Virus record (IMG/VR): IMGVR_UViG_2740892234_000009
Span: 1-13,480 of that record
Direction: 5' to 3' (one strand)
Length of the DNA stretch: 13,480 bases
Source: a virus
Taxonomy: Duplodnaviria > Heunggongvirae > Uroviricota > Caudoviricetes
Shown: one piece after another, positions 1-13,480 of the stretch
How positions within the stretch are numbered: position 1 is the first letter of the stretch
Layout: the number at the start of each line of letters is the position of its first letter
Made by a program: the position numbers and the translations under genes
Notes under the pieces: model-generated
Databases searched by the model: none
What the model was told of the DNA's origin: nothing
Seen by the model: only the letters and a program-made list of their open reading frames with translations

Positions 1-1914
1 TTCAAGGTCGATCATCAGATGAATCCCCGCTCTGCTGGTGGATGTGAGCTTATGATGACCATTCACCTTAATTAAGGGATCTGTCGCCTCGCCAGTTTTA
101 TTATCGCTGGCGTGATGCTGATTGCCGCCAGGGTTCTCCTTGTGTGGATGTTCAGCGCCTTCCATTTCCTCCGGATCATTTTCCTGAACTTCAACCTGAT
201 TCTCTTCATCGAATGTTTCCTGGTATGTTGCGTCGCCCATCACCGCGCCACAATCAGGGCAGTTGCCGCCACCGCTCTGACCGCAGGCGGTGCAGACTTT
301 TTCCGGTTCCTGTTGCGCTACTGGTTCGGATTGTTTCGTTTCTGGCTCGTTTTGTAACGCATTTGGGCTGTTTTGTTCCGCTTTTTGGTCGTTCCGTTCC
401 GATTCATGCTGGTTCTGGTTCACAGAATCGCGAGTCTGGATCCCCTTGACCCATTTCGGATCATTAGGGTCGCTAATCCCCTCAACAAATTCACCACGCG
501 ATACAGCAAGTAACTTATCGGCGTCAGGCTGGCTGATATTGGCTGCCTGCATAATTTTGTTTACTTCGTCAGCGGTGACTTTTACTTGGTTAGCGGAACT
601 CACTTGCGACTGAGCATCCAGCGACTGCGCGTTCTGGCCATGTTCAGTTGTATCCGGTTCCATTGTTTCAGTTGTTGCCTGTTCACCTGCCATTGCGTCA
701 GATGGTTGTGGTTTTTCTTCTTCTGTTTCACGCTCAGTAACCACCTCGCGGTTAATTTCTTCCAGGATATCTTTTTCCGGCGTATGCCGGGCAGCTGTGA
801 GAGTTTCCTTGCTGGGGTTCTCGTGATCAGTTTCCGTCAAATAGGCGTTGATATACCCCTGAAGGCGTCCCGGGTAGTGATAAAATTCAGGGTGTGCGCT
901 TCGGATAAGTGCAAAAATAGCGGCGCGGGAATAGTCCAGAATACCCGGGGTTGCACGAAGTGCTGCGGACCATTCTTTGAACGGACTTTCTTTGTTCAGG
1001 ACTACTTCTTTTGCGCGACGATAAACGCTGCCCGGAATTTCATAAATATTAAAATCCATCGGAAGTGTGGCTGCTGCAATCTCCACATCCAGTGTGTCGA
1101 GGGTGTGTACTAAATTCGGATTGCGATCGGTTTTGTTCCCACCGCCAGCATTAGCACCGGAAGCCGTGCGGGTGATGCGTGAAACACGATTTCCTTTCAT
1201 CCACTCTTTTGTCAGCAGACCCCGATCAGTGTAGTCAGTGTCCAGGTATGCTTCGAAAAAAGCAGTTATTAGTCCCAGGTCTGAATTACCAGGATTAGGG
1301 AAAACTTTGTCAGTGTCACGAACCAGTTTGTGGAGGTCGCGAATCTCCAGCGAGTCGAGCAGACTGGTTTTATGCGAAATAGCCAGGGCAGTAACAGCCG
1401 GTAGTTCTTCAGCCCGTGCAATGTGTAATGCCTGGAGTTCGTCGCGTGAAACGTGCGTTACTGATTTTTCGCTGCCGTGTTGAGCAAGCCAACGAATGGG
1501 CAGTTCCTGACCGGAGACAGGCAGAAGCATGCTCTCCTCAATCTCAGTCATGTCTTCGCCGTTGATGTTGGTATTGTCAGTGCTGGCTGGTTTGTCCTGA
1601 ACAGAGGGGGAAGGGCCGATAAATGTCATTGTGATGCCATCTTTCCCGCCTTTTTCATAGCGGTTGCAGAATTCAGTATCAAACACGCCTTCTGGCGGAA
1701 GGTCGTCAACAACGGGCAAATTGACGCGGACGGGTTTTTTAAAGTCGTCTTCATCATAATCGTTGTCATCCATTGCGGTAATGCAGCGGGAGATTGCAAC
1801 AGATAATTTTTTTGCTGTAGTCCAGTAAAAACCACCTTTAATTCCTAGGCGTTTTCTTACTTTGTCATTTTTTGCTTCGCAATATAGTGCAAATTCTTCT
1901 TTATCAGTGCTCAT
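1..1914 (-). CDS. recE: RecE (exonuclease VIII) homolog, N-terminal 638 codons; 3' part of the gene lies beyond the window start
   Basis: Minus-strand frame open from ATG at 1914 (GAGG 10 nt upstream) to position 1 with no stop. Translation contains motifs I recognise from E. coli Rac RecE ([105 protein letters not shown]). Frame spot-checked around 1498-1530. The overlapping plus-strand ORFs in the track are spurious. Confidence 0.8.
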
Positions 1915-2007
1915 TATTGGTAAACCTCATCACAGATTTAAGGGTGAACAAATCTCTGCCATTGCTGACATATAAGAATGAAACTGGATATTTATTACGG
2001 TGCTGTT

Positions 2008-2199
2008 TTAAAATCCTGCCGGGATTTCGTTATTATCCTGGTGAATAACTTTATCGACCGGATAACAGTTGCCTGGAATTTTCTGTTCGGTTGCTGCTGC
2101 CATACATTCCTGCATTGTTCTGTGAACACTGACTGCAATATCAACTGGCTCTCCGGAAACAAGAAAAACCGTCAGAATAAGTGCAAATACTGGATTCAT
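2008..2199 (-). CDS. ydfD: YdfD-like small protein (63 aa) with N-terminal hydrophobic segment
   Basis: ATG at 2199 overlaps the dicB stop (ATGA); product MNPVFALILTVFLVSGEPVDIAVSVHRTMQECMAAATEQKIPGNCYPVDKVIHQDNNEIPAGF. Same size and position (immediately 3' of dicB) as ydfD in the K-12 Qin dicB operon. Assignment is from memory and synteny. Confidence 0.55.
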   Translation of the reverse strand: MNPVFALILTVFLVSGEPVDIAVSVHRTMQECMAAATEQKIPGNCYPVDKVIHQDNNEIPAGF

Positions 2200-2384
2200 T
2201 GTGCACATCCTTTTGGCATCAGACGTAAACGGGCCAGCATTGAAACAATGCATACTTTATTTAATAACTCCCGTTCGTGTTTTCTTTTGTTAATGGCATC
2301 TTCAGTAAATACAGGATTACTGATAGTGACACCAATTTCAAAACAACCTTCAGACGTATTAACGTTTGGTAATAACGTTTCCAT
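2196..2384 (-). CDS. dicB: DicB-like cell division inhibitor (62 aa)
   Basis: Internal ATG at 2384 of the 2196..2489 ORF, GAGG 8 nt upstream; product METLLPNVNTSEGCFEIGVTISNPVFTEDAINKRKHERELLNKVCIVSMLARLRLMPKGCAQ is near-identical to my recollection of E. coli DicB. Lies directly downstream of DicF, as in Qin. Confidence 0.8.
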   Translation of the reverse strand: METLLPNVNTSEGCFEIGVTISNPVFTEDAINKRKHERELLNKVCIVSMLARLRLMPKGCAQ

Positions 2385-2497
2385 TATCGCGTCCTCAACA
2401 ATGAATTTTGTGATGCGGTGCCTGGTGCCTCCAGGTGACGTTAACCAGTTAACAATTAACGCCGGATACAGAGAATCCACCCATAACACTGTTTTTG

Positions 2498-2569
2498 GTT
2501 TTAACTGTTCCGCGTGCGCTCAGCCGCATTCACCGCATCACAAAATTCACTTTAAAAAGGGCGGCAGAG
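2498..2569. repeat. Direct repeat copy 1 (72 bp) ending at the N-gap; corresponds to the 3' flank and terminal stem of DicF
   Basis: 2498-2569 equals 2610-2681 with one mismatch (c2521 vs t2633). The two copies flank the N run at 2570-2579, which suggests overlapping contig ends or a second DicF locus. Confidence 0.7.
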
Positions 2570-2579
2570 NNNNNNNNNN
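2570..2579. other. Assembly gap (10 N)
   Basis: Run of n in the sequence, flanked by a 72-bp direct repeat. Confidence 0.95.
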
Positions 2580-2665
2580 CATTCCCGTTACGCCCGTAAA
2601 AGACCGCTTGTTTTAACTGTTCCGCGTGCGCTTAGCCGCATTCACCGCATCACAAAATTCACTTT

Positions 2666-2723
2666 AAAAAGGGCGGCAGAGCAGTCACGGAGTAAAACTG
2701 ATACCGCCAAACGTCACCAGAAA
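2666..2723 (-). ncRNA. dicF: DicF small regulatory RNA (Hfq-dependent sRNA that inhibits ftsZ translation), with U-tail
   Basis: Reverse complement of 2671-2723 reads UUUCUGGUGACGUUUGGCGGUAUCAGUUUUACUCCGUGACUGCUCUGCCGCCC, followed by a U-run (A-run 2666-2670 on plus). This matches the DicF sequence as I remember it and sits upstream of dicB in the same orientation. Confidence 0.8.
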
Positions 2724-2904
2724 ATTGATAACAGAGGGCGTTGCAGCGGGGTTGTCACTTAAGCGTATGGTCAACCTGACAACCCGGTGTCCTCAACGGG
2801 GAAGGAATAACCCCGCCATACTTACCGCTGCGCCATTTCGCGGAGTGCCACAACCGGAAGCGCACGATCGAATTAAATTTAACGACGACCTATACAGAGA
2901 GACT

Positions 2905-3022
2905 AACTTCGCCGGGCGCTTTCGTGTTATGCCCTGACTTTTCAGGGATATATCCTTTTCAGTAAACTGTCAGTGCCGGATTCTTATCCGTGTCCGGCGC
3001 ACGCACTCTACCTCACCTGTGA
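2905..3022. promoter_or_regulatory. Conserved ~118-bp element, copy A: palindrome/hairpin CCCTGA-cttt-TCAGGG (2932-2947), hairpin GCCGGA-N12-TCCGGC (2975-2998), candidate sigma70 promoter on plus strand (-35 TTTTCA 2939-2944, 18-bp spacer, -10 TAAACT 2963-2968)
   Basis: Aligns over its whole length with 5040-5156 (about 85-90% identity by eye). The first palindrome carries a compensatory change relative to copy B. Lies between the Y stop codon (3028) and the DicF precursor region. Confidence 0.4.
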
Positions 3023-3027
3023 ATAAA

Positions 3028-3402
3028 TTAATGATTAATTGATATTTTGTTGTTTGATTCAACTTTCCCATCGGATGTGTGATGCTTTAAATCACAGGAA
3101 TTAATACTGCTCGCTGTAAAATGATTTTCAAGGGGAGCTATTCGAATCCCTTTCTTTTTCATTAACAAGCCAAATCCTTTATTAATGATGTCCATTAATT
3201 CCAGGAAGTATTTTTCATGTAAATCCTGGTTATCAGAGAGCTGCTTCTCTTCGTACAGACCGATAAAGGCACGACGCACGTTACCGGATATAGTATCGAT
3301 GGTTTCTTTTTCTACGGTACTCAGGTCAAGAGTCGCCAGTTGAGAGCGAACCACATTCGATGCCATTTCCTGGAATGGTACTGGTAAATCTTTAAATTCC
3401 AT
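3028..3402 (-). CDS. Hypothetical protein Y (124 aa): N-terminal ~50 aa conserved with the 5402..5809 product, unrelated AT-rich C-terminal part
   Basis: ATG at 3402 (MEFKDLPVPFQEMASNVVRSQLATLDLSTVEKETID...), GAGG 6 nt upstream, 11 nt after the stop of the upstream gene. The 5' ~150 bp are conserved at DNA level with 5650-5809; the rest is unrelated. The track ORF starts 4 codons earlier at 3414. Confidence 0.6.
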   Translation of the reverse strand: MEFKDLPVPFQEMASNVVRSQLATLDLSTVEKETIDTISGNVRRAFIGLYEEKQLSDNQDLHEKYFLELMDIINKGFGLLMKKKGIRIAPLENHFTASSINSCDLKHHTSDGKVESNNKISINH

Positions 3403-3413
3403 CGTCAACCTCA

Positions 3414-3566
3414 TCAGTCAGTGTTTCTGGTTAACCAGCGACGCGCGCCAGCTTCAGTTTTAAACGTTTTGCTTCTGGTATACGTCATCGCGGTAAACGT
3501 GCCGTCCTGGTTGGGAAACACGCCGTACACCAGAGATTCGTTGTTGCCAAGATCGATAGTATCCAT
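3414..3566 (-). CDS. Hypothetical small protein X (50 aa), first gene of the repressor-distal leftward operon
   Basis: ATG at 3566 (MDTIDLGNNESLVYGVFPNQDGTFTAMTYTRSKTFKTEAGARRWLTRNTD) with GAGG 5 nt upstream, directly preceded by the conserved leader element. The track ORF extends to 3653, but that part overlaps the conserved element and has no RBS. Confidence 0.45.
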   Translation of the reverse strand: MDTIDLGNNESLVYGVFPNQDGTFTAMTYTRSKTFKTEAGARRWLTRNTD

Positions 3567-3578
3567 GTTGACCTCATT

Positions 3579-3605
3579 TCCCCTTAACGCTGGGGTAGCG
3601 GAACT
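3579..3605 (-). promoter_or_regulatory. Conserved 27-nt leader element (minus sense AGTTCCGCTACCCCAGCGTTAAGGGGAA), copy 1
   Basis: Near-identical to 6495-6521; in both places it sits 13-16 nt upstream of the start codon of the first gene downstream of a repressor gene. Confidence 0.35.
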
Positions 3606-3747
3606 AAAAACCTGCTGCGCTGTTATACAAAGTGTTCCCGCCGTCATGTTCATACGCCTCGGGCTGGCTACTTACCCCCTGACCACTGCTTGGTAACTCG
3701 AAGTATTGCCCGGCGTTCTGTGGGGCGGGGTGGGTTGGTATGTTGTT

Positions 3748-3776
3748 AAGGTAACAAGGGTTACCTTTCGAGTCAA
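3748..3776 (-). promoter_or_regulatory. Candidate leftward promoter with operator: -35 TTGACT (3771-3776), 17-bp spacer, -10 TACCTT (3748-3753), overlapping palindrome GGTAAC-aagg-GTTACC (3750-3765)
   Basis: The palindrome half-sites are identical to the two palindromes in the cI-cro intergenic region (4514-4527, 4562-4575). Lies between the cI terminator and gene X. Confidence 0.4.
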
Positions 3777-3808
3777 TGCAATGTTGCAAAAGGTACATTT
3801 GAGGGCAT

Positions 3809-3832
3809 GAAAAACCCGCAATGAATGCGGGT
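3809..3832 (-). terminator. Rho-independent terminator 6 nt downstream of the cI-like stop
   Basis: Minus sense: stem ACCCGCA / TGCGGGT with 5-nt loop followed by UUUUU (plus 3814-3832 with A-run 3810-3814). Confidence 0.6.
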
Positions 3833-3838
3833 TCTGAC

Positions 3839-4555
3839 TCAGTCTAAGTATTGATGTATTTGTGAAACTTTACCTTTAATGGTGTAACCACCATTCAGTT
3901 CGATGGGTTTGTAAAGCGGATTCAGTGACAACAGATAGATGTTTGGTCCGTCAATCGCAACTTTTTTTAGTGTTACGTTTGGCGTTCCTTCCAATTGGAT
4001 TAAGATTATTTTTCCCACCAGTTCTCTAATGTTACTTGAGCATGGTGTGATCAGCACGGTAGATCCGTCGGGGATGGTTGGGAGGCCGTTAGAGTTTGTC
4101 ATCGCATCTCCCTCAACATGCAATAAAAAAGAGTTTTCAGCGGTTTTTGTCATGACATCAACCCAATTCTTAATACCAGGAATCTCGGTTACTGGACAAC
4201 TCATATCCCAATAACCAGCCTGTTCCCACGTTAAAACGGGCAACCGGGCGATGTTGTCACTAATGTAAGGGTACTGATTCAGACGCAGATCATCGGCTTT
4301 ATCGTGACCGTCCTTTCCATAAAGAATCCATTCAGGAGATTTGGAAAGCAATTTTGACAGTAGATACAAATTCTCACCGTCAGGTTTTGAAGAGCCATTT
4401 TCCCATTTTGTTACGGATACACGAGATATGCCGATTGCTTTCGCAACCTGCTGTTGGGTTAATCCAACGTCTTTTCGACGATTCCGAATACGTTCGCTGA
4501 TAGTGTTTTTCATGTAACCAATGTTACTACCAAGTGATGTTGCTATGGTTGACAT
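3839..4555 (-). CDS. CI-type phage repressor (HTH_XRE N-terminal domain plus LexA-like S24 peptidase C-terminal domain)
   Basis: 238-aa ORF. N-terminal ISERIRNRRKDVGLTQQQVAKAIGISRVSVTKWENG is a classic XRE helix-turn-helix; C-terminal part has S24/LexA-like features (HVEGDAM, GKIILIQLEG, TLKKV) as in lambda CI / P22 C2. The true start is probably the internal ATG at 4513 (MKNTISERIR...), which leaves a 91-bp divergent intergenic region holding both operator palindromes. Confidence 0.85.
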   Translation of the reverse strand: MSTIATSLGSNIGYMKNTISERIRNRRKDVGLTQQQVAKAIGISRVSVTKWENGSSKPDGENLYLLSKLLSKSPEWILYGKDGHDKADDLRLNQYPYISDNIARLPVLTWEQAGYWDMSCPVTEIPGIKNWVDVMTKTAENSFLLHVEGDAMTNSNGLPTIPDGSTVLITPCSSNIRELVGKIILIQLEGTPNVTLKKVAIDGPNIYLLSLNPLYKPIELNGGYTIKGKVSQIHQYLD

Positions 4556-4575
4556 TGTTATGTAACTATTGTTAC
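4514..4575. promoter_or_regulatory. Immunity operator region: palindromes GTAAC-caat-GTTAC (4514-4527) and GTAAC-tatt-GTTAC (4562-4575); candidate pR -35 TTGACA (4549-4554), -10 TACCCT (4573-4578)
   Basis: Two 14-bp inverted repeats with identical half-sites in the divergent cI/cro intergenic region; the same half-site palindrome recurs at 3750-3765. Confidence 0.5.
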
Positions 4576-4604
4576 CCTTCTACTCGAAATAACAGGAGAG
4601 TTTT

Positions 4605-4820
4605 ATGTTCAAAGATGATGTTCTGCGCTATTTCAAAAAAAAGCGACTAGTAGCTGAGGCTCTTGGAATTTCACATGTGGCTGTTGTGCGGTGGAAAGCA
4701 GTTATTCCCAAACTTCGCGCAATGGAACTGGATGAAATTACTAACGGTGAATTGAAATACAACCCAGAACTTTACAAGAAGCAGGATAGCACCTCAAACG
4801 AAGGAAAGAATGATTCATGA
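4605..4820 (+). CDS. Cro-like small HTH protein of the YdaS/DicC family (71 aa)
   Basis: Divergent from the repressor, AGGAG RBS at 4591-4595. Product is clearly homologous to the 7171..7398 product (FGSKTKLA.., ..VP.GRAM.L.E...GEL.Y.P..Y). Overlaps the next gene (ATGA at 4817-4820). Confidence 0.75.
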   Translation: MFKDDVLRYFKKKRLVAEALGISHVAVVRWKAVIPKLRAMELDEITNGELKYNPELYKKQDSTSNEGKNDS

Positions 4821-5029
4821 AAATCAAGCATGAACACATCCGCATGGCGATGAATGTCTGGGCGCATCCGGACGGCGAAAAAGTACCGGCTGCGAAAATT
4901 ACCAAAGCGTATTTCGAGCTGGGAATGACGTTCCCGGAACTGTATGACGACAGCCATCCGGAAGCCCTAGCCCGTAATACCCAGAAAATTTTCCGCTGGG
5001 TAGAGAAAGACACCCCTGATGCAGTTGAA
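4817..5029 (+). CDS. YdaT-like protein, N-terminal part only (truncated by the N-gap at 5030)
   Basis: Starts MKIKHEHIRMAMNVWAHPDGEK; segment NTQKIFRWVEKDTPD resembles NRVKIFERWKAIDTRD of the 7382..7933 product; same position after the cro-like gene. The track ORF reads through the Ns into unrelated sequence, which is an artefact. Confidence 0.5.
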
Positions 5030-5039
5030 NNNNNNNNNN
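5030..5039. other. Assembly gap (10 N)
   Basis: Run of n; interrupts the YdaT-like ORF and immediately precedes conserved element copy B. Confidence 0.95.
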
Positions 5040-5156
5040 AACCTCGCCGTGCGCTTTCGCGTTATGCTCTGACTTTTCAGAGAAATATCCTTTCAGTAAA
5101 CTGTCAGTGCCGGATGTTCACCCGTGTCCGGCGCACGCACTCCACTTCACCCGTGG
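5040..5156. promoter_or_regulatory. Conserved ~117-bp element, copy B: palindrome/hairpin CTCTGA-cttt-TCAGAG (5067-5082), hairpin GCCGGA-N12-TCCGGC (5109-5132), candidate promoter (-35 TTTTCA 5074-5079, 17-bp spacer, -10 TAAACT 5097-5102)
   Basis: Homologous to 2905-3022. The first palindrome differs from copy A by a symmetric pair of substitutions that preserves dyad symmetry/base pairing. Followed by a strong RBS and the ORF at 5191. Confidence 0.4.
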
Positions 5157-5190
5157 AGAACTCCTTAATTACCAACCCTCAGGAGGGTGA

Positions 5191-5424
5191 ATGTTAAAAT
5201 CAACTCTTATTGCTAAATGCCTTTATCAAAATCGCATGGTAAGCAGCATTTCAATAGGCGAGTCTGCAGTTAAAAGTATTTTCGAAGAGTACTTTCCCGG
5301 GCATGATTTTAATAAATGGAATACCAAATTACCGCCAGCAGTTTCAACGCGTATTCTGAAAGCAACCGAAAGAGCAAGTACAATTCGCGTTAACTATTTC
5401 ATTAAAGATTTGTGGGATCTTTGA
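5191..5424 (+). CDS. Hypothetical 77-aa protein, convergent with and overlapping the 3' end of the Y' gene by 23 bp
   Basis: AGGAGGG RBS at 5181-5187, ATG 5191, stop 5422-5424; AT-rich coding region; no homolog recognised. Confidence 0.4.
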   Translation: MLKSTLIAKCLYQNRMVSSISIGESAVKSIFEEYFPGHDFNKWNTKLPPAVSTRILKATERASTIRVNYFIKDLWDL

Positions 5425-5809
5425 TATCCACAGAGCCTAAAGTATGTGCATATGGATGTGCTATTATGCGCCCTCGCAGATTTGCATCATTTTCTAAATT
5501 CACTGAACGAAACAGGGCATCAACAAGGCTCTGTACAATGCAAAGGCAATCGAAGACTGTCGCCGTTTCTGTTTTGATTGATGAAAGAACATGGCCATTC
5601 ACGCAAACAGAAATTACCCGTTTATTAACATCGCTTTCCTGCTTTTGATTATCAGAACCATATAGCCCAGAAAAAGCATTGCGCACATTACGAACCATAT
5701 TATCGATGGTTTCTTTTTCTGCGGTACTAAGGTCAAGAGTAGCCAGTTGTGAACGAACTATATTCGATGCCATTTCCTGTAATGGCGTTGGTAAATCTTT
5801 AAATTCCAT
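5402..5809 (-). CDS. Hypothetical protein Y' (135 aa), paralog of Y with a different C-terminal cassette
   Basis: ATG at 5809 (MEFKDLPTPLQEMASNIVRSQLATLDLSTAEKETID...), GAGG RBS upstream. N-terminal ~50 aa about 85% identical to Y; the rest is unrelated and AT-rich. Confidence 0.6.
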   Translation of the reverse strand: MEFKDLPTPLQEMASNIVRSQLATLDLSTAEKETIDNMVRNVRNAFSGLYGSDNQKQESDVNKRVISVCVNGHVLSSIKTETATVFDCLCIVQSLVDALFRSVNLENDANLRGRIIAHPYAHTLGSVDIKDPTNL

Positions 5810-5831
5810 TATTAGCCTCGTTGGTTAGCTA

Positions 5832-6050
5832 TTAACGTGGGTATGTAATCATTCTGGCAATGCTTAATGCCGCTGCTTTTTCCAGATTGGTGATATCCTG
5901 CTCCAGAGCGGACAGATTTTCAGCCTGCTTAGCCCTGGCTTCATTGGCCCATTTCAGGTCCTGCACCGCCTTAATTTTCTGGTGCATCCACTCATAAAGT
6001 TCATCATCGGTATAGTCTGGCGCGATGATGACGGGGTCTCGTTTCTGCAT
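5832..6050 (-). CDS. Hypothetical 72-aa protein
   Basis: ATG at 6050 with AGGAG 5 nt upstream; product MQKRDPVIIAPDYTDDELYEWMHQKIKAVQDLKWANEARAKQAENLSALEQDITNLEKAAALSIARMITYPR has a helical/coiled-coil character. Confidence 0.55.
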   Translation of the reverse strand: MQKRDPVIIAPDYTDDELYEWMHQKIKAVQDLKWANEARAKQAENLSALEQDITNLEKAAALSIARMITYPR

Positions 6051-6122
6051 GTCGGCTCCTTGTGGTTAGCGTTGCCTGCTTTTTAACCACGTCAGGCGAG
6101 GTGGTATCCTCTGAGGGGTCTG

Positions 6123-6479
6123 TTACTCGAGAGGAAATTGGTTATGAATACAATCAAGTTTTCTTGCCCAGAATGTGGTGGCTAAGTCTTTGACACATCC
6201 TTTAAGCCGCAGGGCTCTGACAGTTTCGCGGGAGCCATCTGCAAAAATTGTGGTCACCTTGTAACTGAAGATGAGTCCTCGCAGTTCGATGACGAAATCG
6301 TTGACAATATCTTCGGTGCACTCACCAGAGACTTTCTGAAGTAAAGGCGCATACCGCTTAGTTACCGCTCTGATAACTCTTACCTGTCCGGCAATGGCGC
6401 TGATATCAATATAAAGCGCCATCGCTGTTTCTTTGCTGATCCCTGGACGCCTTCCATTCTGATGTTTGACTTCGCCCAC
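6123..6479 (-). CDS. Hypothetical 118-aa protein (GTG start), first gene downstream of the DicA-like repressor; conflicts with an antisense disrupted zinc-ribbon ORF
   Basis: GTG at 6479 preceded by AGAGGA and by the conserved 27-nt leader element. No homolog recognised. The C-terminal two thirds overlap a plus-strand zinc-ribbon reading frame (6144-6344), so the true coding strand of 6144-6344 is uncertain. Confidence 0.4.
   Translation of the reverse strand: MGEVKHQNGRRPGISKETAMALYIDISAIAGQVRVIRAVTKRYAPLLQKVSGECTEDIVNDFVIELRGLIFSYKVTTIFADGSRETVRALRLKGCVKDLATTFWARKLDCIHNQFPLE
6144..6344 (+). pseudogene. Zinc-ribbon small protein reading frame interrupted by an in-frame TAA at codon 14 (6183-6185)
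   Basis: GAGAGG RBS at 6129-6134, ATG 6144; conceptual product MNTIKFSCPECGG*VFDTSFKPQGSDSFAGAICKNCGHLVTEDESSQFDDEIVDNIFGALTRDFLK has two CxxC pairs and an acidic C-terminus typical of small zinc-ribbon proteins. Confidence 0.35.
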
Positions 6480-6494
6480 TGAGAAATCCTCTGC

Positions 6495-6521
6495 TTCCCC
6501 TTAACGCCGGGTAGCGGAACT
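6495..6521 (-). promoter_or_regulatory. Conserved 27-nt leader element, copy 2 (minus sense AGTTCCGCTACCCGGCGTTAAGGGGAA)
   Basis: Matches 3579-3605 except for one indel/substitution; 16 nt upstream of GTG 6479. Confidence 0.35.
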
Positions 6522-6686
6522 GTTTGCTGAGAACACCGTGCGGTGTCTTGATGAGTAGAATTTAGAATAGCCTAAGAGTTATGGTCAAGCTTTTTGTGTA
6601 GAAAAACCTAAGCTTCTTGATGTAAAAAACACAAGTATTTGAAAGTTTGTGCTTTTTATTACAGAGAGTTGCGAAAAAAAGGGGGG

Positions 6687-7094
6687 TTATTTATTTGCGC
6701 TTCTTTTGCGAGCTTTGAGTAGTTCTTCAAAAAGTTTGTTGAAATTCTCAACTCGAGCACGCATCTCTGACAACAGAGCCTTTTGCTCTGACTCAGGCAG
6801 TGCGTCGAACAGTTGAAGCAACTCTTTTTGATCTTCTGTCAGATTGACTGGCTGATTATCTGGGATCGGTTCGCCTGGTTGCTTATCTTCATCTCCAAAA
6901 AGAAGCCAAGTCGGCGAGCACTGAAGCGCCTGGCTCAGTGCGAATAATCTCTTCCCCGCTGGCTGTGTTTCATCTCTTTCCCATTGAGAAATTGTTACGT
7001 GAGCCACTTTGACCAGCTTACCTAATGCGGCCTGAGACAGTTTTAATTTTTTTCGCCTGTATAAGAGGCGAGCACCGAAGGTTTCGTTTTTCAT
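6687..7094 (-). CDS. dicA: DicA-like (P22 C2-type) HTH_XRE repressor, 135 aa
   Basis: Product contains LSQAALGKLVKVAHVTISQWERDETQPAGKRLFALSQALQCSPTWLLFGDEDKQP and ...LFDALPESEQ...EMRARVENFNKLFEELLKARKR, which closely match my recollection of E. coli DicA (also 135 aa). Divergent from a DicC-like gene. Confidence 0.8.
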   Translation of the reverse strand: MKNETFGARLLYRRKKLKLSQAALGKLVKVAHVTISQWERDETQPAGKRLFALSQALQCSPTWLLFGDEDKQPGEPIPDNQPVNLTEDQKELLQLFDALPESEQKALLSEMRARVENFNKLFEELLKARKRSANK

Positions 7095-7170
7095 ATTAGG
7101 TAATTCTAATTTTTCTTGACTTAGGTTTCTCTACGATCTAGTTTCCTTAGGAAAATCTAAGGGGTTCGAT
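7095..7170. promoter_or_regulatory. Divergent promoter/operator region: candidate rightward promoter -35 TTGACT (7116-7121), -10 TAGTTT (7139-7144); palindrome CCTTAG-gaaaat-CTAAGG (7145-7162); additional TTAGG/CTAA repeats (7096-7109, 7121-7126)
   Basis: Inverted repeats built on a CTTAGG/CCTAAG half-site in the 76-bp intergenic region between the divergent repressor and cro-like genes; AAGGGG RBS 7158-7163 before ATG 7171. Confidence 0.45.
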
Positions 7171-7398
7171 ATGTTGAAAATTGATGCTATAGAGTTTTTT
7201 GGCAGCAAAACAAAGCTTGCCAATGTCGCAGGAGTTAGGCTGGCAAGCGTTGCTGCATGGGGAGAACTGGTTCCTGAAGGTCGCGCGATGCGCCTGCAAG
7301 AGGCATCCGGCGGGGAACTTCAGTACGACCCCAAAGTTTATGACGAATATCGTAAGGCAAAGCGGGCGGGGCGGTTGAACAATGAAAATCACCACTGA
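7171..7398 (+). CDS. dicC: DicC/YdaS-family Cro-like protein (75 aa)
   Basis: Divergent from the DicA-like repressor; product MLKIDAIEFFGSKTKLANVAGVRLASVAAWGELVPEGRAMRLQEASGGELQYDPKVYDEYRKAKRAGRLNNENHH; homologous to the 4605..4820 product. Symbol assigned by position and partial recollection. Confidence 0.7.
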   Translation: MLKIDAIEFFGSKTKLANVAGVRLASVAAWGELVPEGRAMRLQEASGGELQYDPKVYDEYRKAKRAGRLNNENHH

Positions 7399-7933
7399 AC
7401 AGGTTTGTGAGGCTCTGGATACCTGGGTATGCCGACCAGGAATGACACAGGAGCAGGCGACGATATTAATCACGGAAGCATTCTGGGCTCTGAAAGAACG
7501 CCCGAACATCGATGTTCAACGCGTCACGTTTAATGATGGCGAGGTTGATCAACGGGCGCTGGGCGTTAACCGGGTGAAGATATTCGAACGCTGGAAAGCT
7601 ATCGACACCAGAGATAAGCGTGACAAATTCACGGCGCTGATTCCGGCAATTATGGAGGCTATCCGGATCAGCGATTTCAGATTGTATTGTGAAATTACTG
7701 ACGGAAAAAGCATTACGTACATGATCGCCGGGTTAAACAAAGAATATGGCGATGTGGTGGAGTCCGGGCTGCTTTTTGCGGATCCAGTTGTTGTGGAACG
7801 TGAGACTGACGAGCTTATAGAAAAAGCTATTGCTTTCAAGCACGCGTATCGTCAGCAATACCAATATTACTTTGCAGATAAACAAATGTCTGCCAGGGGT
7901 TCGTATGAGTATCGATGCACTACGATGGGCTAA
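7382..7933 (+). CDS. YdaT-like protein (183 aa)
   Basis: Overlaps the cro-like gene end by 17 nt; shares the MKI start and the KIFxRW..DT.D segment with the 4817 ORF. Family assignment is from memory. Confidence 0.6.
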   Translation: MKITTEQVCEALDTWVCRPGMTQEQATILITEAFWALKERPNIDVQRVTFNDGEVDQRALGVNRVKIFERWKAIDTRDKRDKFTALIPAIMEAIRISDFRLYCEITDGKSITYMIAGLNKEYGDVVESGLLFADPVVVERETDELIEKAIAFKHAYRQQYQYYFADKQMSARGSYEYRCTTMG

Positions 7934-8955
7934 AAAGGTGAAAACCGGCAGTTCATCCAGTAAGTCAGTATTGACCTGGCTTGCTGATATGTGCGGTGCC
8001 GATTTGTGTGCATACCCGTCTGTATCTGCACTGGCAGAAGTAACGGAACTGAACAAAAAGACTGTGCAGGACAGCTTACGACACCTGATGGAGATTGGGT
8101 TAATTGTTGATACCGGTGAGAGAAAAGGCAGAACAAAGCAAATTGTGGTGTACCGACTTATCGGTGTAGAAGAAAGTGTTGCCGAGCCTGAATACACCCA
8201 AAAACGGGAGTCTTTAAAGGTGGGTAAAATTGGTGCTGTTAATAAAAACAGTACCGAAAATGGTTATGTTTCAGCACAAAACAGACCCAAAAACAGAACT
8301 CTTAGCTGCATGGAAAATAACCAAAGACACCCAAATTTTCCATCAAAGACACCCAAAAACGGATCACGGAACCCAAAGGAACCCAAAGGAACCCAAAGAT
8401 CTAAACCCCACACATAACGCACGCGAGAGTGCTCCGACCAGTGAGCAGGAAGTTTTGTCGTTACAGGCAGCCCCCCCTGTATTCCTGTATGGCCTGAGCG
8501 AACCCATCGGAAAATTCCCGATGAGCGATAGCTGGTATCCGTCACGGGATTTTCGACGACGGGCTGCGTTGTGGGGGATGGCTTTGCCGGAGACAGAATT
8601 TACACCTGCTGAACTTGCCGCCTTCCGGGACTACTGGGCAGCGGAGGGGAAAGTGTTTACGCAGATTCAGTGGGAGCAGAAATTCGCCCGTCACGTAAAT
8701 CACGTCAGGGCGCAGGTTAAACCAGTCAGCAAAGGGGTAAACCATGCAGCAGCACCAGGTGGCACCGCATCACGGGCAGTTCAGGAAATTCGGGCAGCAC
8801 GTGAGCAGTGGGAACGTGAAAACGGATTTATCAGCGACGGAAACGGCCTGGAAGCTGTGGGAACTCATGGGGGTGGTTTATTCGAACCGCTGGACCCAGA
8901 AGAACGGGGCCGCACCTTCGAAGCTCTGGATTGCACAGATTGGCGCGATGACTGA
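7905..8955 (+). CDS. Replication initiator (O-like): N-terminal HTH/winged-helix domain (7905-8417, frame A) and DnaT-like C-terminal domain (frame B, ends 8955), separated by an apparent +1 frameshift within 8230-8417
   Basis: ATG 7905 with AGGGG RBS. N-terminal part MSIDALRWAKKVKTG...VLTWLADMCGADLCAYPSVSALAEVTELNKKTVQDSLRHLMEIGLIVDTGERKGRTKQIVVYRL. C-terminal part GKFPMSDSWYPSRDFRRRAALWGMALPETEFTPAELAAFRDYWAAEGKVFTQIQWEQKFARH aligns with E. coli DnaT ([26 protein letters not shown]...[20 protein letters not shown]). Frame A stops at 8415-8417; frame B is open from about 8230. The gene may be a pseudogene or carry an assembly indel. Confidence 0.6.
8281..8400. repeat. Iteron-like array inside the replication gene: ACCCAAA-containing repeats, including CAAAGACACCCAAA x2 (8322-8335, 8344-8357) and a perfect 10-bp tandem GGAACCCAAA x3 (8368-8397)
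   Basis: Repeats read directly from the sequence; the position (inside the initiator gene between its two domains) is analogous to ori-lambda within gene O. Confidence 0.55.
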
Positions 8956-9409
8956 GCAGCAAATCCGGCAGGTCTGCCGCCAGTGCATGGACTGCTGCCG
9001 GGCGGGTGAAACATGGCCTCCGGACCTGGCTGAGTTTGTGGCACTGATTTCGAAAAGCGGAGCCAATCCATTCGGTCTGACGGTGGATGCTGTGATGGAG
9101 GAGTACTGCCGCTGGCGCAATGAGTCCTGGCGATACGACGGAAGTGATAAGTACCCGTGGTCTCAGCCTGTGCTGTATCACATTTGCCTCGAGATGCGTT
9201 CAAAGGGGATTGAGCGCCAGATGACCGAAGGGGAATTAAAACGGCTTGCAGAACGGCAACTGACGAAATGGGCAAAGCATGTTAGTAACGGCCTGAGCGT
9301 TCCGCCAGTCCGGCGACAACTGGCGGCCCCCAAACGCCCGTCGGGGCCAACGCCAATTGAGTTGCTGAAACAGGAATATGAACGCCGGAAAGCGGCTGGT
9401 TTTGTTTGA
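8948..9409 (+). CDS. Lambda P-like replication protein (helicase loader family), 153 aa
   Basis: ATG 8948 overlaps the upstream stop (ATGACTGA). Product aligns with the C-terminal part of lambda P: PDLAEFVALI ~ PGQFVAWC, VDAVMEEYCRWRNE ~ VDMVYEYCRKRG, KYPWSQPVLYHICLEMRSKGIERQMTEGELKRLAERQL ~ SYPWKSNAHYWLVTNLYQNMRANALTDAELRRKAADEL. The track ORF starts earlier at 8744, inside the upstream gene. Confidence 0.7.
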   Translation: MTEQQIRQVCRQCMDCCRAGETWPPDLAEFVALISKSGANPFGLTVDAVMEEYCRWRNESWRYDGSDKYPWSQPVLYHICLEMRSKGIERQMTEGELKRLAERQLTKWAKHVSNGLSVPPVRRQLAAPKRPSGPTPIELLKQEYERRKAAGFV

Positions 9410-9442
9410 GTTGAGAAGTGATTTTTTACCGGGAGGAAATTT

Positions 9443-10177
9443 ATGGAGACTGTTTTTGACGCACTGAAAGCGATGGGAAAAGCCACGTCGGTAGAGCTGG
9501 CTGCGCGCCTTGATATCAGTCGTGAAGAAGTACTGAACGAGCTGTGGGAACTGAAAAAGGCTGGCTTCGTTGATAAAAGCGTATACACCTGGCGTGTGGC
9601 TGATAACAACGTTCAGCAGGAACAGCCAGCGCCAGAAGAAACCACCACGGCAACAGAAGCGAAAATCTCAGAGTGCGATTTAACCGCGACGATTGAACAA
9701 CGCGGACCACAAACGGCGGATGAACTGGCTACGCTGTTCGGTACAACATCCCGCAAAGTTGCTTCAACGCTGGCAATGGCAATCAGCAAAGGTCGTCTGA
9801 TTCGCGTAAACCAGAACGGTAAAATTCGTTACTGCATACCAGGTGATAATTTACCAGCAGAGCCGAAAGTTGAATCGGTAGCGGAAACCGATGGTAAAGC
9901 CTTTCCTCAGCCAGCCGGTGTTGCGTTACCGGTACAGAAAGATGCAACACAGGAAGATATTAAAACAGAAACTGTGGCGGACATTGTGCAGTCGCTGCCA
10001 TCGTTTACTGCAACGCGAGAAGATGATTTGATTTTGCCATCGCTGCATATGGCAAATCGCGAACTGCGTAGGGCGAAGAATCATGTCCAGAAGTGGGAGC
10101 GAGTCTGCGCCGCGCTGCGGGAGCTGAACAAGCACCGGGATATGGTTGCCGGGATTTGTCGGAAGTCCGGGCAATGA
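9443..10177 (+). CDS. Hypothetical 244-aa protein with two winged-helix-like segments
   Basis: GGAGG RBS at 9432-9436, ATG 9443. wHTH-like segments [29 protein letters not shown] and [32 protein letters not shown]; acidic/T-rich linker. No specific family recognised. Confidence 0.55.
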
Positions 10178-10338
10178 GCGGATGGTGCAGGCCTGAAATC
10201 ATGATACTAACAATGAAGGTAAAATGCATCGGCAGTCTGATTGGTCGTAGTGAGGCGGCGGTCAGGATGAAAGCCCGGGTTAAGGGAATAAGCCTGATTC
10301 TGCGGGGTGATTTTCACCAGTCAACAAAATATCCGTAG
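10174..10338 (+). CDS. Hypothetical small ORF (54 aa), weak support
   Basis: ATG 10174 overlapping the upstream stop (ATGA); no clear RBS; alternative in-frame ATGs at 10201 and 10213. Confidence 0.2.
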
Positions 10339-10618
10339 CGCGATAACGGTCAAAAATTATGGCGCTGACACTTTTGTGCCACTGGAGATGACTGTACCTA
10401 AGTTCAGGGGAGAAGAACACGTCCGGTGGGATGGTCGGGCCAGATTTAAAGGGCAGGTCATGGCTCCAGCCTGTACGCTGGCAATGGAGGCTGCCTGGCG
10501 GGAAATTGATATGGGAACCACGCCACTCAGGGATTTACTGCCGGTCCAGAGAATAAATTCCTGTTACGGTTACACCACTGTGATCTTGCAAGTGCAGGAA
10601 AGTAGGTCTACACGGTAA
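10307..10618 (+). CDS. Hypothetical ORF (103 aa, GTG start), weak support; possibly a gene remnant
   Basis: Open frame overlapping the previous ORF in another frame; no convincing RBS; no homolog recognised. Confidence 0.2.
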   Translation: MIFTSQQNIRSAITVKNYGADTFVPLEMTVPKFRGEEHVRWDGRARFKGQVMAPACTLAMEAAWREIDMGTTPLRDLLPVQRINSCYGYTTVILQVQESRSTR

Positions 10619-10846
10619 CGCGAGTGCGTGTAACTTTTGATGTCATTCCCGTAGAAACACCGGACAAATTTTCGCTGACAGGTCATGCAGAAGGTATAAA
10701 TCTGCAGATTATGGACAATTACGGATATCCGGCAAGAGCCGGAAAAAGCATGCCGCCTCTAATTCTCAGTGGAAGATGGACTTGATTATACTCATTGCAT
10801 TGTCAGAAATAGTTATCCATTAAAGGCTGGCTATTCCAAACAGGAT

Positions 10847-10870
10847 GTTGATTACAAAAATGTAATCAAC
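10847..10870. promoter_or_regulatory. Perfect 24-bp palindrome GTTGATTACA-aaaa-TGTAATCAAC in the AT-rich region upstream of the binding-protein gene
   Basis: Read directly; lies about 30 bp upstream of a TATAAT hexamer (10899-10904) and about 170 bp upstream of ATG 11037. Confidence 0.3.
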
Positions 10871-11036
10871 ATGTAAGGTTTATACTCTTCAATATGCGTA
10901 TAATTTTCCTTATTTTGTTGACTTTAAATAACAAGCTATGCACGAGGTAAAGTCGGATAAGTTTATCTGGATGTAATATATATTATTTGTAGTGTTTATA
11001 ACTTTATTTCATGATAACCAATAAAAGGAGTTTTTT

Positions 11037-11795
11037 ATGAGGAACATAATGGCAGGTTTTTTAATATTCCTGTCTTCTGCTGCTTATGCTGATATCAATC
11101 TGTATGGTCCTGGTGGCCCGCATACAGCCTTGCTTGATGCAGCCAAACTTTATGCCGAAAAAACAGGTATTATAGTGAACGTTCATTACGGCCCACAGAA
11201 CAAATGGAATGAAGATGCCAAAAAAAATGCAGATATCTTGTTTGGCGCATCAGAACAATCTGCTCTGGCTATCATTCGGGACCATAAAGACAGCTTCAGT
11301 GAAAAAGATATTCAGCCTCTTTATCTGCGAAAAAGTATTTTACTGGTAAAGAAAGGTAATCCTAAAAATATCCGGAGTATTGACGACCTGACCAGACCTG
11401 GGATTGGCGTAATTGTTAATGATGGTGGTGGTACCAGTAATACATCAGGCACTGGCGTCTGGGAAGATATTGCCGGACGTAAAGGGAATATAGAAACTGT
11501 CGCCGCAATCCGAAAAAATATTATTTTATATGCGCCCAATAGCGGAACTGCACGTAAGGCTCTTGAGAATCAGCCTGGAGCAGATGTCTGGATAACCTGG
11601 GCTGACTGGGCAGCCAGTAATCCAGAAATTGGTGATGTCGTGGAAATAGCGCCAGACTACGTGATATGGCGTGATATGAACATTACAGTACGTCAGGATG
11701 CAAATGATGAAACCCGTCGATTTGCAGAATGGCTACAAACCGATGAAGCGGCGCCTGCATTCAAAAAATATGGCTGGACCAGGAAAGGCACTTGA
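11037..11795 (+). CDS. Periplasmic substrate-binding protein of the ModA (molybdate/tungstate-binding) family, with signal peptide; no cognate permease/ATPase in the window
   Basis: GGAG RBS 11025-11028. N-terminal signal peptide MRNIMAGFLIFLSSAAYA. C-terminus FAEWLQTDEAAPAFKKYGW resembles the ModA C-terminus (AFYDYLKGPQAAEIFKRYGF); overall type-2 periplasmic binding protein pattern. Sits in a low-GC island (10620-11036). Confidence 0.75.
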   Translation: MRNIMAGFLIFLSSAAYADINLYGPGGPHTALLDAAKLYAEKTGIIVNVHYGPQNKWNEDAKKNADILFGASEQSALAIIRDHKDSFSEKDIQPLYLRKSILLVKKGNPKNIRSIDDLTRPGIGVIVNDGGGTSNTSGTGVWEDIAGRKGNIETVAAIRKNIILYAPNSGTARKALENQPGADVWITWADWAASNPEIGDVVEIAPDYVIWRDMNITVRQDANDETRRFAEWLQTDEAAPAFKKYGWTRKGT

Positions 11796-11797
11796 CA

Positions 11798-11827
11798 TCC
11801 TCGTCCTTCAGGACGTGGATTCTTTTT
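11798..11827 (+). terminator. Rho-independent terminator after the binding-protein gene
   Basis: Stem TCCTCGTCC / GGACGTGGA (one mismatch), loop TTCA, followed by TTCTTTTT; begins 3 nt after the stop. Confidence 0.5.
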
Positions 11828-11914
11828 CCGGATGCCGCGCCAGCGGCATGTAGGGGCAGCTCACAAAACGGAAAAAATTGTACGCTAAGCCTCGCCAGGT
11901 GAACTGAATTCATT

Positions 11915-11938
11915 CCGATATGGGAATTCCCATATCGG
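11915..11938. repeat. Perfect 24-bp palindrome CCGATATGGGAATTCCCATATCGG
   Basis: Read directly; centred on a GAATTC site; a second GAATTC lies at 11906-11911. No flanking T-run, so it is not a terminator. Confidence 0.6.
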
Positions 11939-12023
11939 GCGAAAACGGTTTGCTGTAACGGCAGAGTTAAGTAGGATTGCTGCGGGTGCTTGAGGCTATC
12001 TGCCTCGGGCATGAACACCAACG

Positions 12024-12033
12024 NNNNNNNNNN
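12024..12033. other. Assembly gap (10 N) upstream of the hok locus
   Basis: Run of n. Confidence 0.95.
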
Positions 12034-12131
12034 TAAAAGCCCCACCCGACTATAAATCGAAGTGAGGCCCCTATATGCTCGTCACATATAGATTGCCTCT
12101 TACGGACCGAAAGGTCAAGGAGAAGCAGGCT

Positions 12132-12287
12132 ATGAAGCAGCAAAAGGCGATGTTAATCGCCCTGATCGTCATCTGTTTAACCGTCATAGTGACGGCACTG
12201 GTAACGAGGAAAGACCTCTGCGAGGTACGAATCCGAACCGGCCAGACGGAGGTCGCTGTCTTCACAGCTTACGAACCTGAGGAGTAA
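12132..12287 (+). CDS. hokD: Hok/Gef-family membrane toxin (type I toxin), 51 aa
   Basis: Product MKQQKAMLIALIVICLTVIVTALVTRKDLCEVRIRTGQTEVAVFTAYEPEE is a canonical Hok/Gef peptide (hydrophobic helix, conserved C..E..R..G..EVAAF-type tail). It matches my recollection of HokD (RelF) best, but the paralog assignment is less certain than the family. RBS AAGGAG 12118-12123. Confidence 0.75.
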   Translation: MKQQKAMLIALIVICLTVIVTALVTRKDLCEVRIRTGQTEVAVFTAYEPEE

Positions 12288-12355
12288 GAGACCAGGCGGG
12301 GGAGAAATCCCTCGCCACCTCTGATGTGTCAGGCATCCTCAACGCACCCGCACTT

Positions 12356-12382
12356 AACCCGCTTCGGCGGGTTTTTGTTTTT
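12356..12382 (+). terminator. Rho-independent terminator at the 3' end of the hok transcript
   Basis: Stem ACCCGC / GCGGGT with TTCG loop followed by TTTTTGTTTTT. Confidence 0.6.
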
Positions 12383-12507
12383 ATTTTCAACGCGTTTGAA
12401 GTTCCGGACGGCGCCGGAATAGAATCAAAAATACTTAAGTAGCGCGCAGGGAGAAGAGGGATGGACCCCGAACAGGGGAGTGCTATTTATCTGGAAGGAT
12501 TCTGTTG

Positions 12508-12765
12508 ATGAGAATCGAAGAATTACGTGAAATTTTTAGTGAAGATGGCCTCTATACTGTGCGCGTTGAGAAGGGCGCTATTGTCAGCCACTGCCGTATT
12601 AAATGTTTACAGTCTCAACAAAGGAAGAGTGGAGCTGCGTTAATTCATTTTGTGGATGGGCTTGTGACGGATGGTTTTATTTTGCGTGCAAATGAATTTG
12701 TCACATCGTTGCCGTCTCTGAAAGAAGCTGGGATTAAGGCTGGTTTTTCTGCTTTTGAAGATTAG
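12508..12765 (+). CDS. Hypothetical 85-aa phage protein
   Basis: ATG 12508 with GGAAGGA 9 nt upstream (the track ORF starts at TTG 12505); product MRIEELREIFSEDGLYTVRVEKGAIVSHCRIKCLQ.... Occupies the position of rem next to hokD in Qin, but the sequence is not recognised. Confidence 0.5.
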   Translation: MRIEELREIFSEDGLYTVRVEKGAIVSHCRIKCLQSQQRKSGAALIHFVDGLVTDGFILRANEFVTSLPSLKEAGIKAGFSAFED

Positions 12766-12834
12766 TGAATTCATCTACAATTCAGCGCAGGGCTGAACCC
12801 CTGTTGAGTAACACTGTGCCACCGGAGAAAGCCG

Positions 12835-13113
12835 ATGGCGCAAAATTCCAGACTACACAATTCTGATAATTCAGCCGTCTTTGCCAGCAGGCACGGGCGG
12901 CGTTCTCATGCATTCAAATCTGACTGGTTCCGGCACGCCCCATGCACTGAAGAACAGGCCGAATGGCTGATTCAGAACTACCGCAGACGTGGGTATGAGT
13001 TTAGGAAAGCCCTCAGCCTCGATTATCGTCACTGGATAATCTACGTCAGGCTGCCGTACTCCGAGCGCCCACCGCGTCCGTCCCGCACATTCCAGCAACG
13101 CATCTGGAGGTAA
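12835..13113 (+). CDS. Hypothetical 92-aa basic protein
   Basis: GGAG RBS 12824-12827, ATG 12835; Arg-rich product; no homolog recognised. Confidence 0.4.
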   Translation: MAQNSRLHNSDNSAVFASRHGRRSHAFKSDWFRHAPCTEEQAEWLIQNYRRRGYEFRKALSLDYRHWIIYVRLPYSERPPRPSRTFQQRIWR

Positions 13114-13114
13114 C

Positions 13115-13480
13115 GTGCGGGTATTACTTCGACCTGTTCCGGTACCGGAACTTGGGTTGGAGGTCCTTAAACCAGGCCGTGAATCCATGCAGGTATTCCA
13201 TAACCCTCGAGTGCTTGTGGAGCCGGAACCGAAAAGCATGCGCGGTCTGCCGTCCGGCATCGTCCCTGCCGTTCGCCAGCCGCTGGCGGAGGATAAATCA
13301 TTACTGCCGTTTTTCAGCAATGAGCGTGTGATTCGTGCTGTTGGTGGCGCTGGTGCACTGTCTGACTGGCTGTTGCGTCATGTCAAATCCTGCCAGTGGC
13401 CTCATGGTGACTATCATCACAGTGAAACCGTTATTCACCGTTATGGTACCGGCGCAATGGTGTTGTGCTGGCACTGCGAC
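13115..13480 (+). CDS. Phage protein, 5' partial (runs off the window end); possibly YdfU/DUF968-like
   Basis: GTG 13115 preceded by GGAGG (13106-13110); open for 122 codons to the window end; C-terminal visible part ...CQWPHGDYHHSETVIHRYGTGAMVLCWHCD is Cys/His-rich. Family assignment is tentative (memory plus Qin synteny hokD-rem-ydfU). Confidence 0.45.
   Translation, partial: MRVLLRPVPVPELGLEVLKPGRESMQVFHNPRVLVEPEPKSMRGLPSGIVPAVRQPLAEDKSLLPFFSNERVIRAVGGAGALSDWLLRHVKSCQWPHGDYHHSETVIHRYGTGAMVLCWHCD

Follow-up and report, generated by a model that had tools for sequence, protein, structure and literature searches.

The stretch of DNA analyzed here, 13,480 nucleotides from a Caudoviricetes virus (IMG/VR virus record IMGVR_UViG_2740892234_000009, positions 1 to 13,480) and hereafter termed the window, encodes at 11037-11795 the gene paa, also named adfO, which is an already-known adherence-associated virulence gene of Shiga-toxin-producing strains of Escherichia coli (STEC) and of pig-pathogenic E. 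coli that a lambda-like prophage carries. Considered as a whole, the locus is very probably best explained as paa/adfO (Z2053, O-island 57 or OI-57), a stand-alone virulence factor of the AcfC/PEB3/Paa group that resides as a moron on a lambdoid prophage and presumably serves adherence by binding an anion. The gene and the elements surrounding it are as follows.

10343-10876, plus strand: decayed pilin gene (PixH/PapH-like minor subunit) with a frameshift and internal stops, in three reading-frame pieces
10845-10872, plus strand: hairpin (inverted repeat) with 12-nt perfect arms, ATGTTGATTACA and TGTAATCAACAT, around AAAA; left boundary of the paa cassette
10873-11036, plus strand: AT-rich paa leader and putative promoter region, with TATAAT at 10899-10904 and a ribosome-binding site (RBS) at 11025-11030
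11037-11795, plus strand: paa/adfO coding sequence, an intact open reading frame (ORF) of 252 aa with an ATG start
Residues 1-19 of Paa, plus strand: Sec signal peptide, MRNIMAGFLIFLSSAAYA, with an A-x-A site at its end and no lipobox Cys
11797-11828, plus strand: intrinsic terminator of paa, a 9-pair interrupted stem with a 4-nt loop, then TTCTTTTT
11856-11941, plus strand: prophage-specific right end of the cargo, holding a perfect palindrome; lambdoid hok/sok backbone homology from 11942
11915-11938: the perfect 24-bp palindrome CCGATATGGGAATTCCCATATCGG, with a central EcoRI site (-18.3 kcal/mol)
11984-12287, plus strand: sok antisense RNA (RF01794, 66.5 bits, 11984-12134) and hokD/gef type I toxin-antitoxin (hokD ORF, 12075-12287)

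The identity of the gene is evident at the DNA level. The segment 10300-12020 (1721 nt) is 100% identical to chromosomal sequences of O157:H7, O26, O103, O111 and other STEC, and at least 80% of it is carried by 574 of 5426 complete E. coli genomes. RefSeq annotates the identical loci as 'paa: AcfC family adhesin Paa', with a frameshifted 'fimbrial protein' pseudogene alongside, while deposited PPompW prophages are 99.9% identical and have the gene annotated as 'Paa/adherence factor AdfO'. When both the allele and its surroundings were compared with the reference Paa/AdfO of E. coli (porcine attaching-effacing associated protein; Z2053, OI-57/CP-933O, O157:H7 EDL933; WP_001449026.1), the expected prophage context was present, with an identical order of DUF1627 gene, pilin pseudogene, paa and hokD/ckf, and the gene itself exhibited no difference. 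The window departs from the reference prophages only in its left 5 kb (early-left), which is a diverged mosaic. The annotated reference prophages adjoin ompW and are arranged in the order integrase, excisionase, exonuclease, dicB, dicA/dicC-like repressors, replication, DUF1627, pilin pseudogene, paa, hokD (gef), rusA and Q. The sok/hokD module located directly 3' of paa is the 'ckf' gene said to accompany adfO in OI-57: according to one review, adfO (z2053) is part of EDL933 O-island 57, where ckf (z2054, a hok-like killing factor) invariably accompanies it, and is similar to Paa (PMC8565820). A second source equates adfO with paa and ascribes to it a role in attaching-effacing (A/E) lesion formation (PMC10562709).

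Since paa is situated between two backbone modules (the DUF1627 gene on one side and hokD-sok 'ckf' on the other), deviates in composition from its surroundings and possesses its own terminator, it is accessory cargo, or a moron, within the early-right region of an ompW-integrating (PPompW / CP-933O-like) lambdoid prophage. An initial annotation of this DNA had likewise described the gene as prophage cargo, and its carriage by OI-57/PPompW prophages bears this out. The equivalent slot of another prophage (H68) is occupied by different cargo, and examples of what it holds elsewhere are a toxin of the Doc type and a DUF4752 gene. A prophage with an empty site, in which the DUF1627 flank is joined to the hok/sok flank, was represented by 0 records at a coverage of at least 80%, the records retrieved being only prophages with other cargo.

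The expression signals and export features of paa are readily recognized. Reading of the sequence places a strong RBS, AAGGAG, 6 nt 5' of the ATG, and the terminator stem (11802-11815, extendable to 11797-11820; -12.7 kcal/mol, z = -4.2) is followed by TTCTTTTT, so the gene does have the RBS and terminator of its own that had been attributed to it, and it would be expressed independently as a stand-alone unit. Its GC content is 43.9%, vs 47.1% for the entire window. The N-terminus, judged by eye rather than with a predictor, combines a single basic residue and a hydrophobic core with an A-x-A cleavage site, after which the mature protein would begin with DINLYGPGGP and measure ~25-26 kDa, its first residue aligning with residue 2 of 2HXW, a PEB3 chain of 237 aa. 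Paa contains 0 cysteines, which argues for a Sec-exported soluble protein rather than a lipoprotein. Together with the fold described below, these features support the view that Paa is a secreted protein having a periplasmic-binding-protein fold, in agreement with the secreted binding protein originally proposed for this ORF.

The question of which binding-protein family Paa represents has a clear answer among proteins of solved structure. In Pfam, Paa matches only the broad SBP_bac_11 family (5.5e-34). A search of PDB returned PEB3 of Campylobacter jejuni at 1.2e-81 (Paa residues 11-248) and AcfC of Vibrio cholerae at 3.5e-81 (16-248), vs E values of only 1e-4 to 1e-3 for sulfate-binding proteins, and there were no ModA, TupA or WtpA structures among the matches at E <= 0.01. 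Over its full length, Paa is ~50% or more identical to proteins whose class-II binding-protein structures have been solved, with AcfC at about 47-50%, and a full-length match was also obtained to the phage family phrog_11834 (4e-176). Given solved structures at E 1e-81, the fold of Paa can be regarded as already fixed. A family alignment of 29 sequences, having 34-92% identity to Paa, reveals a set of invariant positions comprising YGxGGP, GNPK, G130, G132, E143-D144, R159, S169, W188, W191, R212 and G246-W247. The SNTSGTG loop is absent only from the most distant clade of this alignment; Paa retains it as G-x-G-x-SNTSGTGVWED, with PEB3 T138/S139 aligning to Paa T136/S137. These sequence relationships make Paa the representative in E. 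coli of the AcfC/PEB3/Paa family, whose members are stand-alone virulence factors with a periplasmic-binding-protein fold.

Comparison with the two structurally characterized relatives also delineates what sets Paa apart. PEB3 (PDB 2HXW, 3FIR, 3FJ7, 3FJG and 3FJM) resembles Paa over its full length, including the YGPGGP and SNTSGTGVWED motifs, the signal peptide and the fold. However, PEB3 is an N-glycoprotein encoded by a core chromosomal gene under BumSR control, and its Lys135 corresponds to Thr133 of Paa. The PDB entries of PEB3 vary at residue 135 (E or K), which fits the K135E mutant that Min et al. (2009, Biochemistry 48:3057) reportedly made. AcfC (PDB 4JB7; VC_0841, VPI-1) is a homolog with ~50% identity and is similarly a colonization factor carried as cargo of a mobile virulence island, but it is encoded in a ToxT-regulated acfB-acfC operon, whereas paa has no such neighbor. 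As a separate observation, the paa homolog of Providencia alcalifaciens (L010:6001-6747, 67% identity) has a stop codon in frame, which makes it a probable pseudogene.

The lack of a transporter partner, which had been noted for this gene at the outset, is also true of its relatives. No permease or ATPase gene was found in the window, in the annotated reference prophages or in the plasmid copies of paa described below. From 80 related loci in species-representative genomes, the 33 with full-length homologs were used for a survey of gene neighborhoods, and no ABC-transporter family was found among the 25 commonest Pfam families encoded by 127 neighboring ORFs (two per side where possible). Similarly, no ORF combining Walker-A and LSGGQ motifs was detected within ~6 kb in the window or in 29 of the 33 family loci, the four positive loci having ~560-aa ORFs located ~2 kb away, in Vibrio. 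The absence of a transporter partner is therefore typical of the AcfC/PEB3/Paa family. This, along with the status of paa/adfO as a named virulence gene, argues against the suggestion that it is an unusual form of prophage cargo. In V. cholerae (L018), a 626-aa ORF on the same strand ends 48 nt upstream of the acfC gene, in agreement with the published acfB-acfC operon, in which the upstream gene product, AcfB, is chemoreceptor-like. Among distant family genes of marine gammaproteobacteria (Vibrio and Endozoicomonas, L019-L030), the conserved neighbors are an extracytoplasmic function (ECF) sigma factor, a zf-HC2 anti-sigma factor and Lipoprotein_15, while in Burkholderia, Limnobacter and an unclassified gammaproteobacterial metagenome-assembled genome (L029, L031, L032), a LysR regulator and a PF03601 (YeiH-like) membrane protein are encoded immediately upstream. 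These arrangements hint that the proteins of those distant clades may have regulatory or secondary-transport partners.

Based upon these features, Paa is most likely an exported small-anion-binding protein that would promote adherence. Presumably, export takes it into the periplasm, and possibly further, where the cleft between its lobes may bind a small anion that carries phosphate or sulfate, or else an anionic group on a glycan. Ligand-bound Paa would then promote adherence and colonization by attaching-effacing and enterotoxigenic E. coli (ETEC). As there is no dedicated ABC permease or ATPase, Paa would act either by a binding or adhesive activity of its own or by way of a partner whose gene lies elsewhere in the host. 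The ligands reported for PEB3 are 3-phosphoglycerate and phosphoenolpyruvate, whereas AcfC binds sulfated glycosaminoglycans as well as mucin and affects chemotaxis toward mucin. The PEB3 residues T138/S139, which align to Paa T136/S137, are the ligand-site residues that Min et al. reportedly mutated in 2009. The adfO mutant is described as exhibiting poor adherence to HeLa cells and lower secretion of several proteins (PMC8565820), and mutants of paa are likewise reported to be defective in adherence. Several points weigh against this interpretation. AcfC was periplasmic and did not mediate adhesion to cells, and the Paa sequence shows neither an anchor nor a signal for surface display, a point against a classical adhesin. 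Furthermore, the promoter scan found no consensus -35/-10 pair within the conserved paa leader.

The alternative that best accommodates several of these points is that Paa is a periplasmic ligand sensor operating through a host-encoded partner, such as a chemoreceptor, a two-component sensor or a secondary transporter, in which case the adherence and secretion phenotypes would be indirect. We consider this possible, though unlikely. It would account for a soluble protein of binding-protein fold that has a signal peptide but lacks an anchor, in a family devoid of ABC partners, and for the position of V. cholerae acfC downstream of the chemoreceptor-like acfB, with AcfC acting on chemotaxis and not on adhesion. 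Likewise, the loss of adfO reduces the secretion of several unrelated proteins, which looks like a regulatory effect. However, neither the prophage nor the plasmids supply a linked partner gene for paa, and reports cited in secondary sources describe direct effects of paa mutants and anti-Paa reagents upon A/E adherence. A more elaborate and somewhat more doubtful version holds that Paa is a transporter-less periplasmic sensor of host phospho- and sulfo-metabolites whose chromosomal partner tunes adherence and secretion in enterohaemorrhagic E. coli (EHEC), and that the two strong hairpins at 10845-10872 and 11915-11938, between which the paa part of the cargo lies, are functional in a regulatory or recombinational capacity rather than products of chance.

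The remaining two explanations are far less probable. According to the initial annotation, the locus encodes an orphan high-affinity protein of the ModA type that could sequester molybdate or tungstate for the lysogen. It is correct that Paa and ModA share the Pfam superfamily SBP_bac_11, and more broadly Paa shares the class-II anion-binding fold of the ModA/Sbp/CysP group of ABC binding proteins. Weak partial matches of Paa to ModA models also occur, with E about 1.5e-3. At any finer level the resemblance fails. Paa misses every curated cut-off widely, scoring 18.3 bits against TIGR01256 (cut-off 62.5) and 17.7 bits against NF002920 (cut-off 470) with no significant aligned stretch, and 19-22.6 bits over ~45 residues against the Sbp/CysP NCBIfam models, which have cut-offs of 155-308. 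Moreover, there is no modB/modC linkage in the window, the reference prophages or the plasmids, the closest structures (~1e-81) are those of PEB3 and AcfC, and the ligands reported for these close homologs are phospho-carboxylates and sulfated glycans. A molybdate or tungstate binder is thus highly improbable. Equally improbable is the proposal that paa serves the phage itself through superinfection exclusion, receptor masking or anti-phage defense. The gene does occupy a variable cargo slot of lambdoid prophages beside a hok/sok toxin module, and the equivalent slot in H68 contains a toxin-antitoxin gene, but the PADLOC defense models yielded no match for Paa, the identical type of cassette occurs on F-type plasmids that lack a phage context, and the Vibrio and Campylobacter homologs are chromosomal colonization factors. 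The earlier idea of an exclusion factor consequently finds no support, and the anion-binding adherence factor outlined above is the reading that we carry forward.

Turning to the DNA that precedes the gene, the low GC content is genuine, though it is less extensive than was first thought. GC amounts to 27.9% over 10786-11036 and 26.3% over 10843-11036, vs 47.1% for the window, while 10620-10785 is of ordinary composition (300-nt windows covering 10501-10800 have 45% GC). Consequently, the AT-rich stretch spans ~250 bp and not the ~400 bp originally assigned to it, the higher-GC left portion of that region being the decayed pilin gene. The region had also been credited with promoter-like hexamers. 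There are 2 such pairs vs 3.9 +/- 2.0 in shuffled sequences, i.e. no enrichment, and neither pair is found in the conserved leader. A single perfect TATAAT is present at 10899-10904 and is retained in the plasmid copies of paa, whereas an Rfam scan of 10786-11036 detected no leader RNA. From the 26% GC of the leader, we infer that silencing of the H-NS type and control by a virulence regulon are plausible.

Immediately to the left of this leader, the putative perfect 24-bp palindrome at 10847-10870 is in fact a hairpin, since the central AAAA is not self-complementary. Its arms extend over 10845-10856 and 10861-10872 and are perfect, with a 4-nt spacer. As RNA, the element has a folding energy of -14.3 kcal/mol (z = -6.1). 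When the window was simulated 300 times with a first-order Markov model, only 1 simulation contained an inverted repeat with 12-nt arms, and the hairpin is therefore unlikely to have occurred by chance. Neither the hairpin nor the AT-rich leader is present 5' of the paa orthologs of E. albertii, Citrobacter and Edwardsiella, so both belong to the cassette as it occurs in E. coli rather than to the family. For the same reason, we rejected the hairpin as a family-wide operator. Upon inspection by eye, it matched none of the consensus sequences for FNR, CRP, TyrR, LexA, Fur or IHF.

The limits of the cargo become apparent when the prophage is compared with IncF plasmids of porcine and other STEC and ETEC, which share with it a ~1-kb paa cassette extending from 10843 or 10851 through 11855 or 11819. 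Plasmid homology starts on the left at 10843 in pSTEC388_3 and at 10851 in pSTEC299_1, which places the left breakpoint at or within the hairpin: pSTEC388_3 retains 10-nt arms, and the outer part of the left arm is gone from pSTEC299_1. On the right, the homology ends at 11819 and 11855. Plasmid and prophage paa are about 91-92% identical in DNA sequence at the level of the gene and 87-89% over the alignments as a whole. The AT-rich leader, TATAAT and RBS are all conserved inside the cassette, most of the hairpin and part of the terminator stem are kept in the plasmid copies, and a transporter is likewise missing from them. The plasmid genes (for example pSTEC388_3 WP_001258298.1) differ from that of the prophage in being flanked by replication and toxin-antitoxin genes and IS110, with neither a pilin remnant nor the 11856-11941 segment, and RefSeq labels them only 'substrate-binding domain-containing protein'.

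Conversely, the 11856-11941 segment travels with the prophage form of the gene. A 96-nt probe placed on it detected 580 of 5426 E. coli genomes, which is approximately the same as the 574 having prophage paa, and other Shiga toxin (Stx) phages match the window only from 11942 onward, where the sok/hokD module starts. The perfect palindrome within this segment lies at the right edge of the cargo, 4 nt before Stx-phage hok/sok homology restarts, and it accompanies prophage-borne paa.

To the left of the hairpin, the pilin remnant provides some indication of the origin of the cargo. At the equivalent coordinates of two annotated reference loci (L002 and L005), it bears the RefSeq label 'fimbrial protein, frameshifted; internal stop'. 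Once reconstructed, the encoded protein shares 65% identity with PixH of the ETEC plasmid pEB2 over residues 21-178, and the PixH homology ends before the hairpin, while Pfam yielded no match for the separate fragments. No intact pilin gene was recognized in six-frame translations 5' of the paa orthologs of E. albertii, Citrobacter, Edwardsiella and others, and PixH, the closest intact relative of the remnant, is located in a pix operon that does not contain paa. The similarity of the remnant to the pix operon of plasmid pEB2 suggests that a plasmid or a fimbrial operon was the setting from which the prophage acquired its cargo.

With the palindrome and the AT-rich extent corrected, the original observation upon this locus is largely real, and it is the reading as a novel orphan ModA that is unsupported. 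The value of the locus as a discovery is small, as the paa gene, its location on OI-57/PPompW prophages and its family have been described before, and paa/adfO is already in use as a molecular risk marker for STEC. What the current analysis adds is the family-wide lack of a transporter partner, the delimitation of a ~1-kb cassette common to the prophage and IncF plasmids, and the coincidence of the left end of this cassette with a strong hairpin beside a decayed PixH-like pilin gene.

Some further observations pertain to the remainder of the window. No complete E. coli genome covers >75% of it. Within the early-left mosaic (1-5040), the segments 1-585, 1910-2569 and 2610-3021 match reference PPompW-type prophages at 90-94%, whereas ~585-1910 and 3021-5040, which include a 238-aa ORF at 3839-4555 (minus strand), yielded no megablast match to these prophages. 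Three runs of exactly 10 N are found at 2570-2579, 5030-5039 and 12024-12033 and may be masks or scaffold joins. The second coincides with the change from diverged sequence to 99.9% identity with the reference prophages, and the third stands for 10 real bases in the sok/hok region, as the alignment to one of the reference loci (L005) is collinear across it. One additional RNA feature is located in the early-left part.

2671-2722, minus strand: DicF antisense small RNA (Rfam RF00039, 76.7 bits), lying upstream of the dicB-like region

The proximity of DicF to a dicB-like region is typical of Qin/CP-933O-type prophages.

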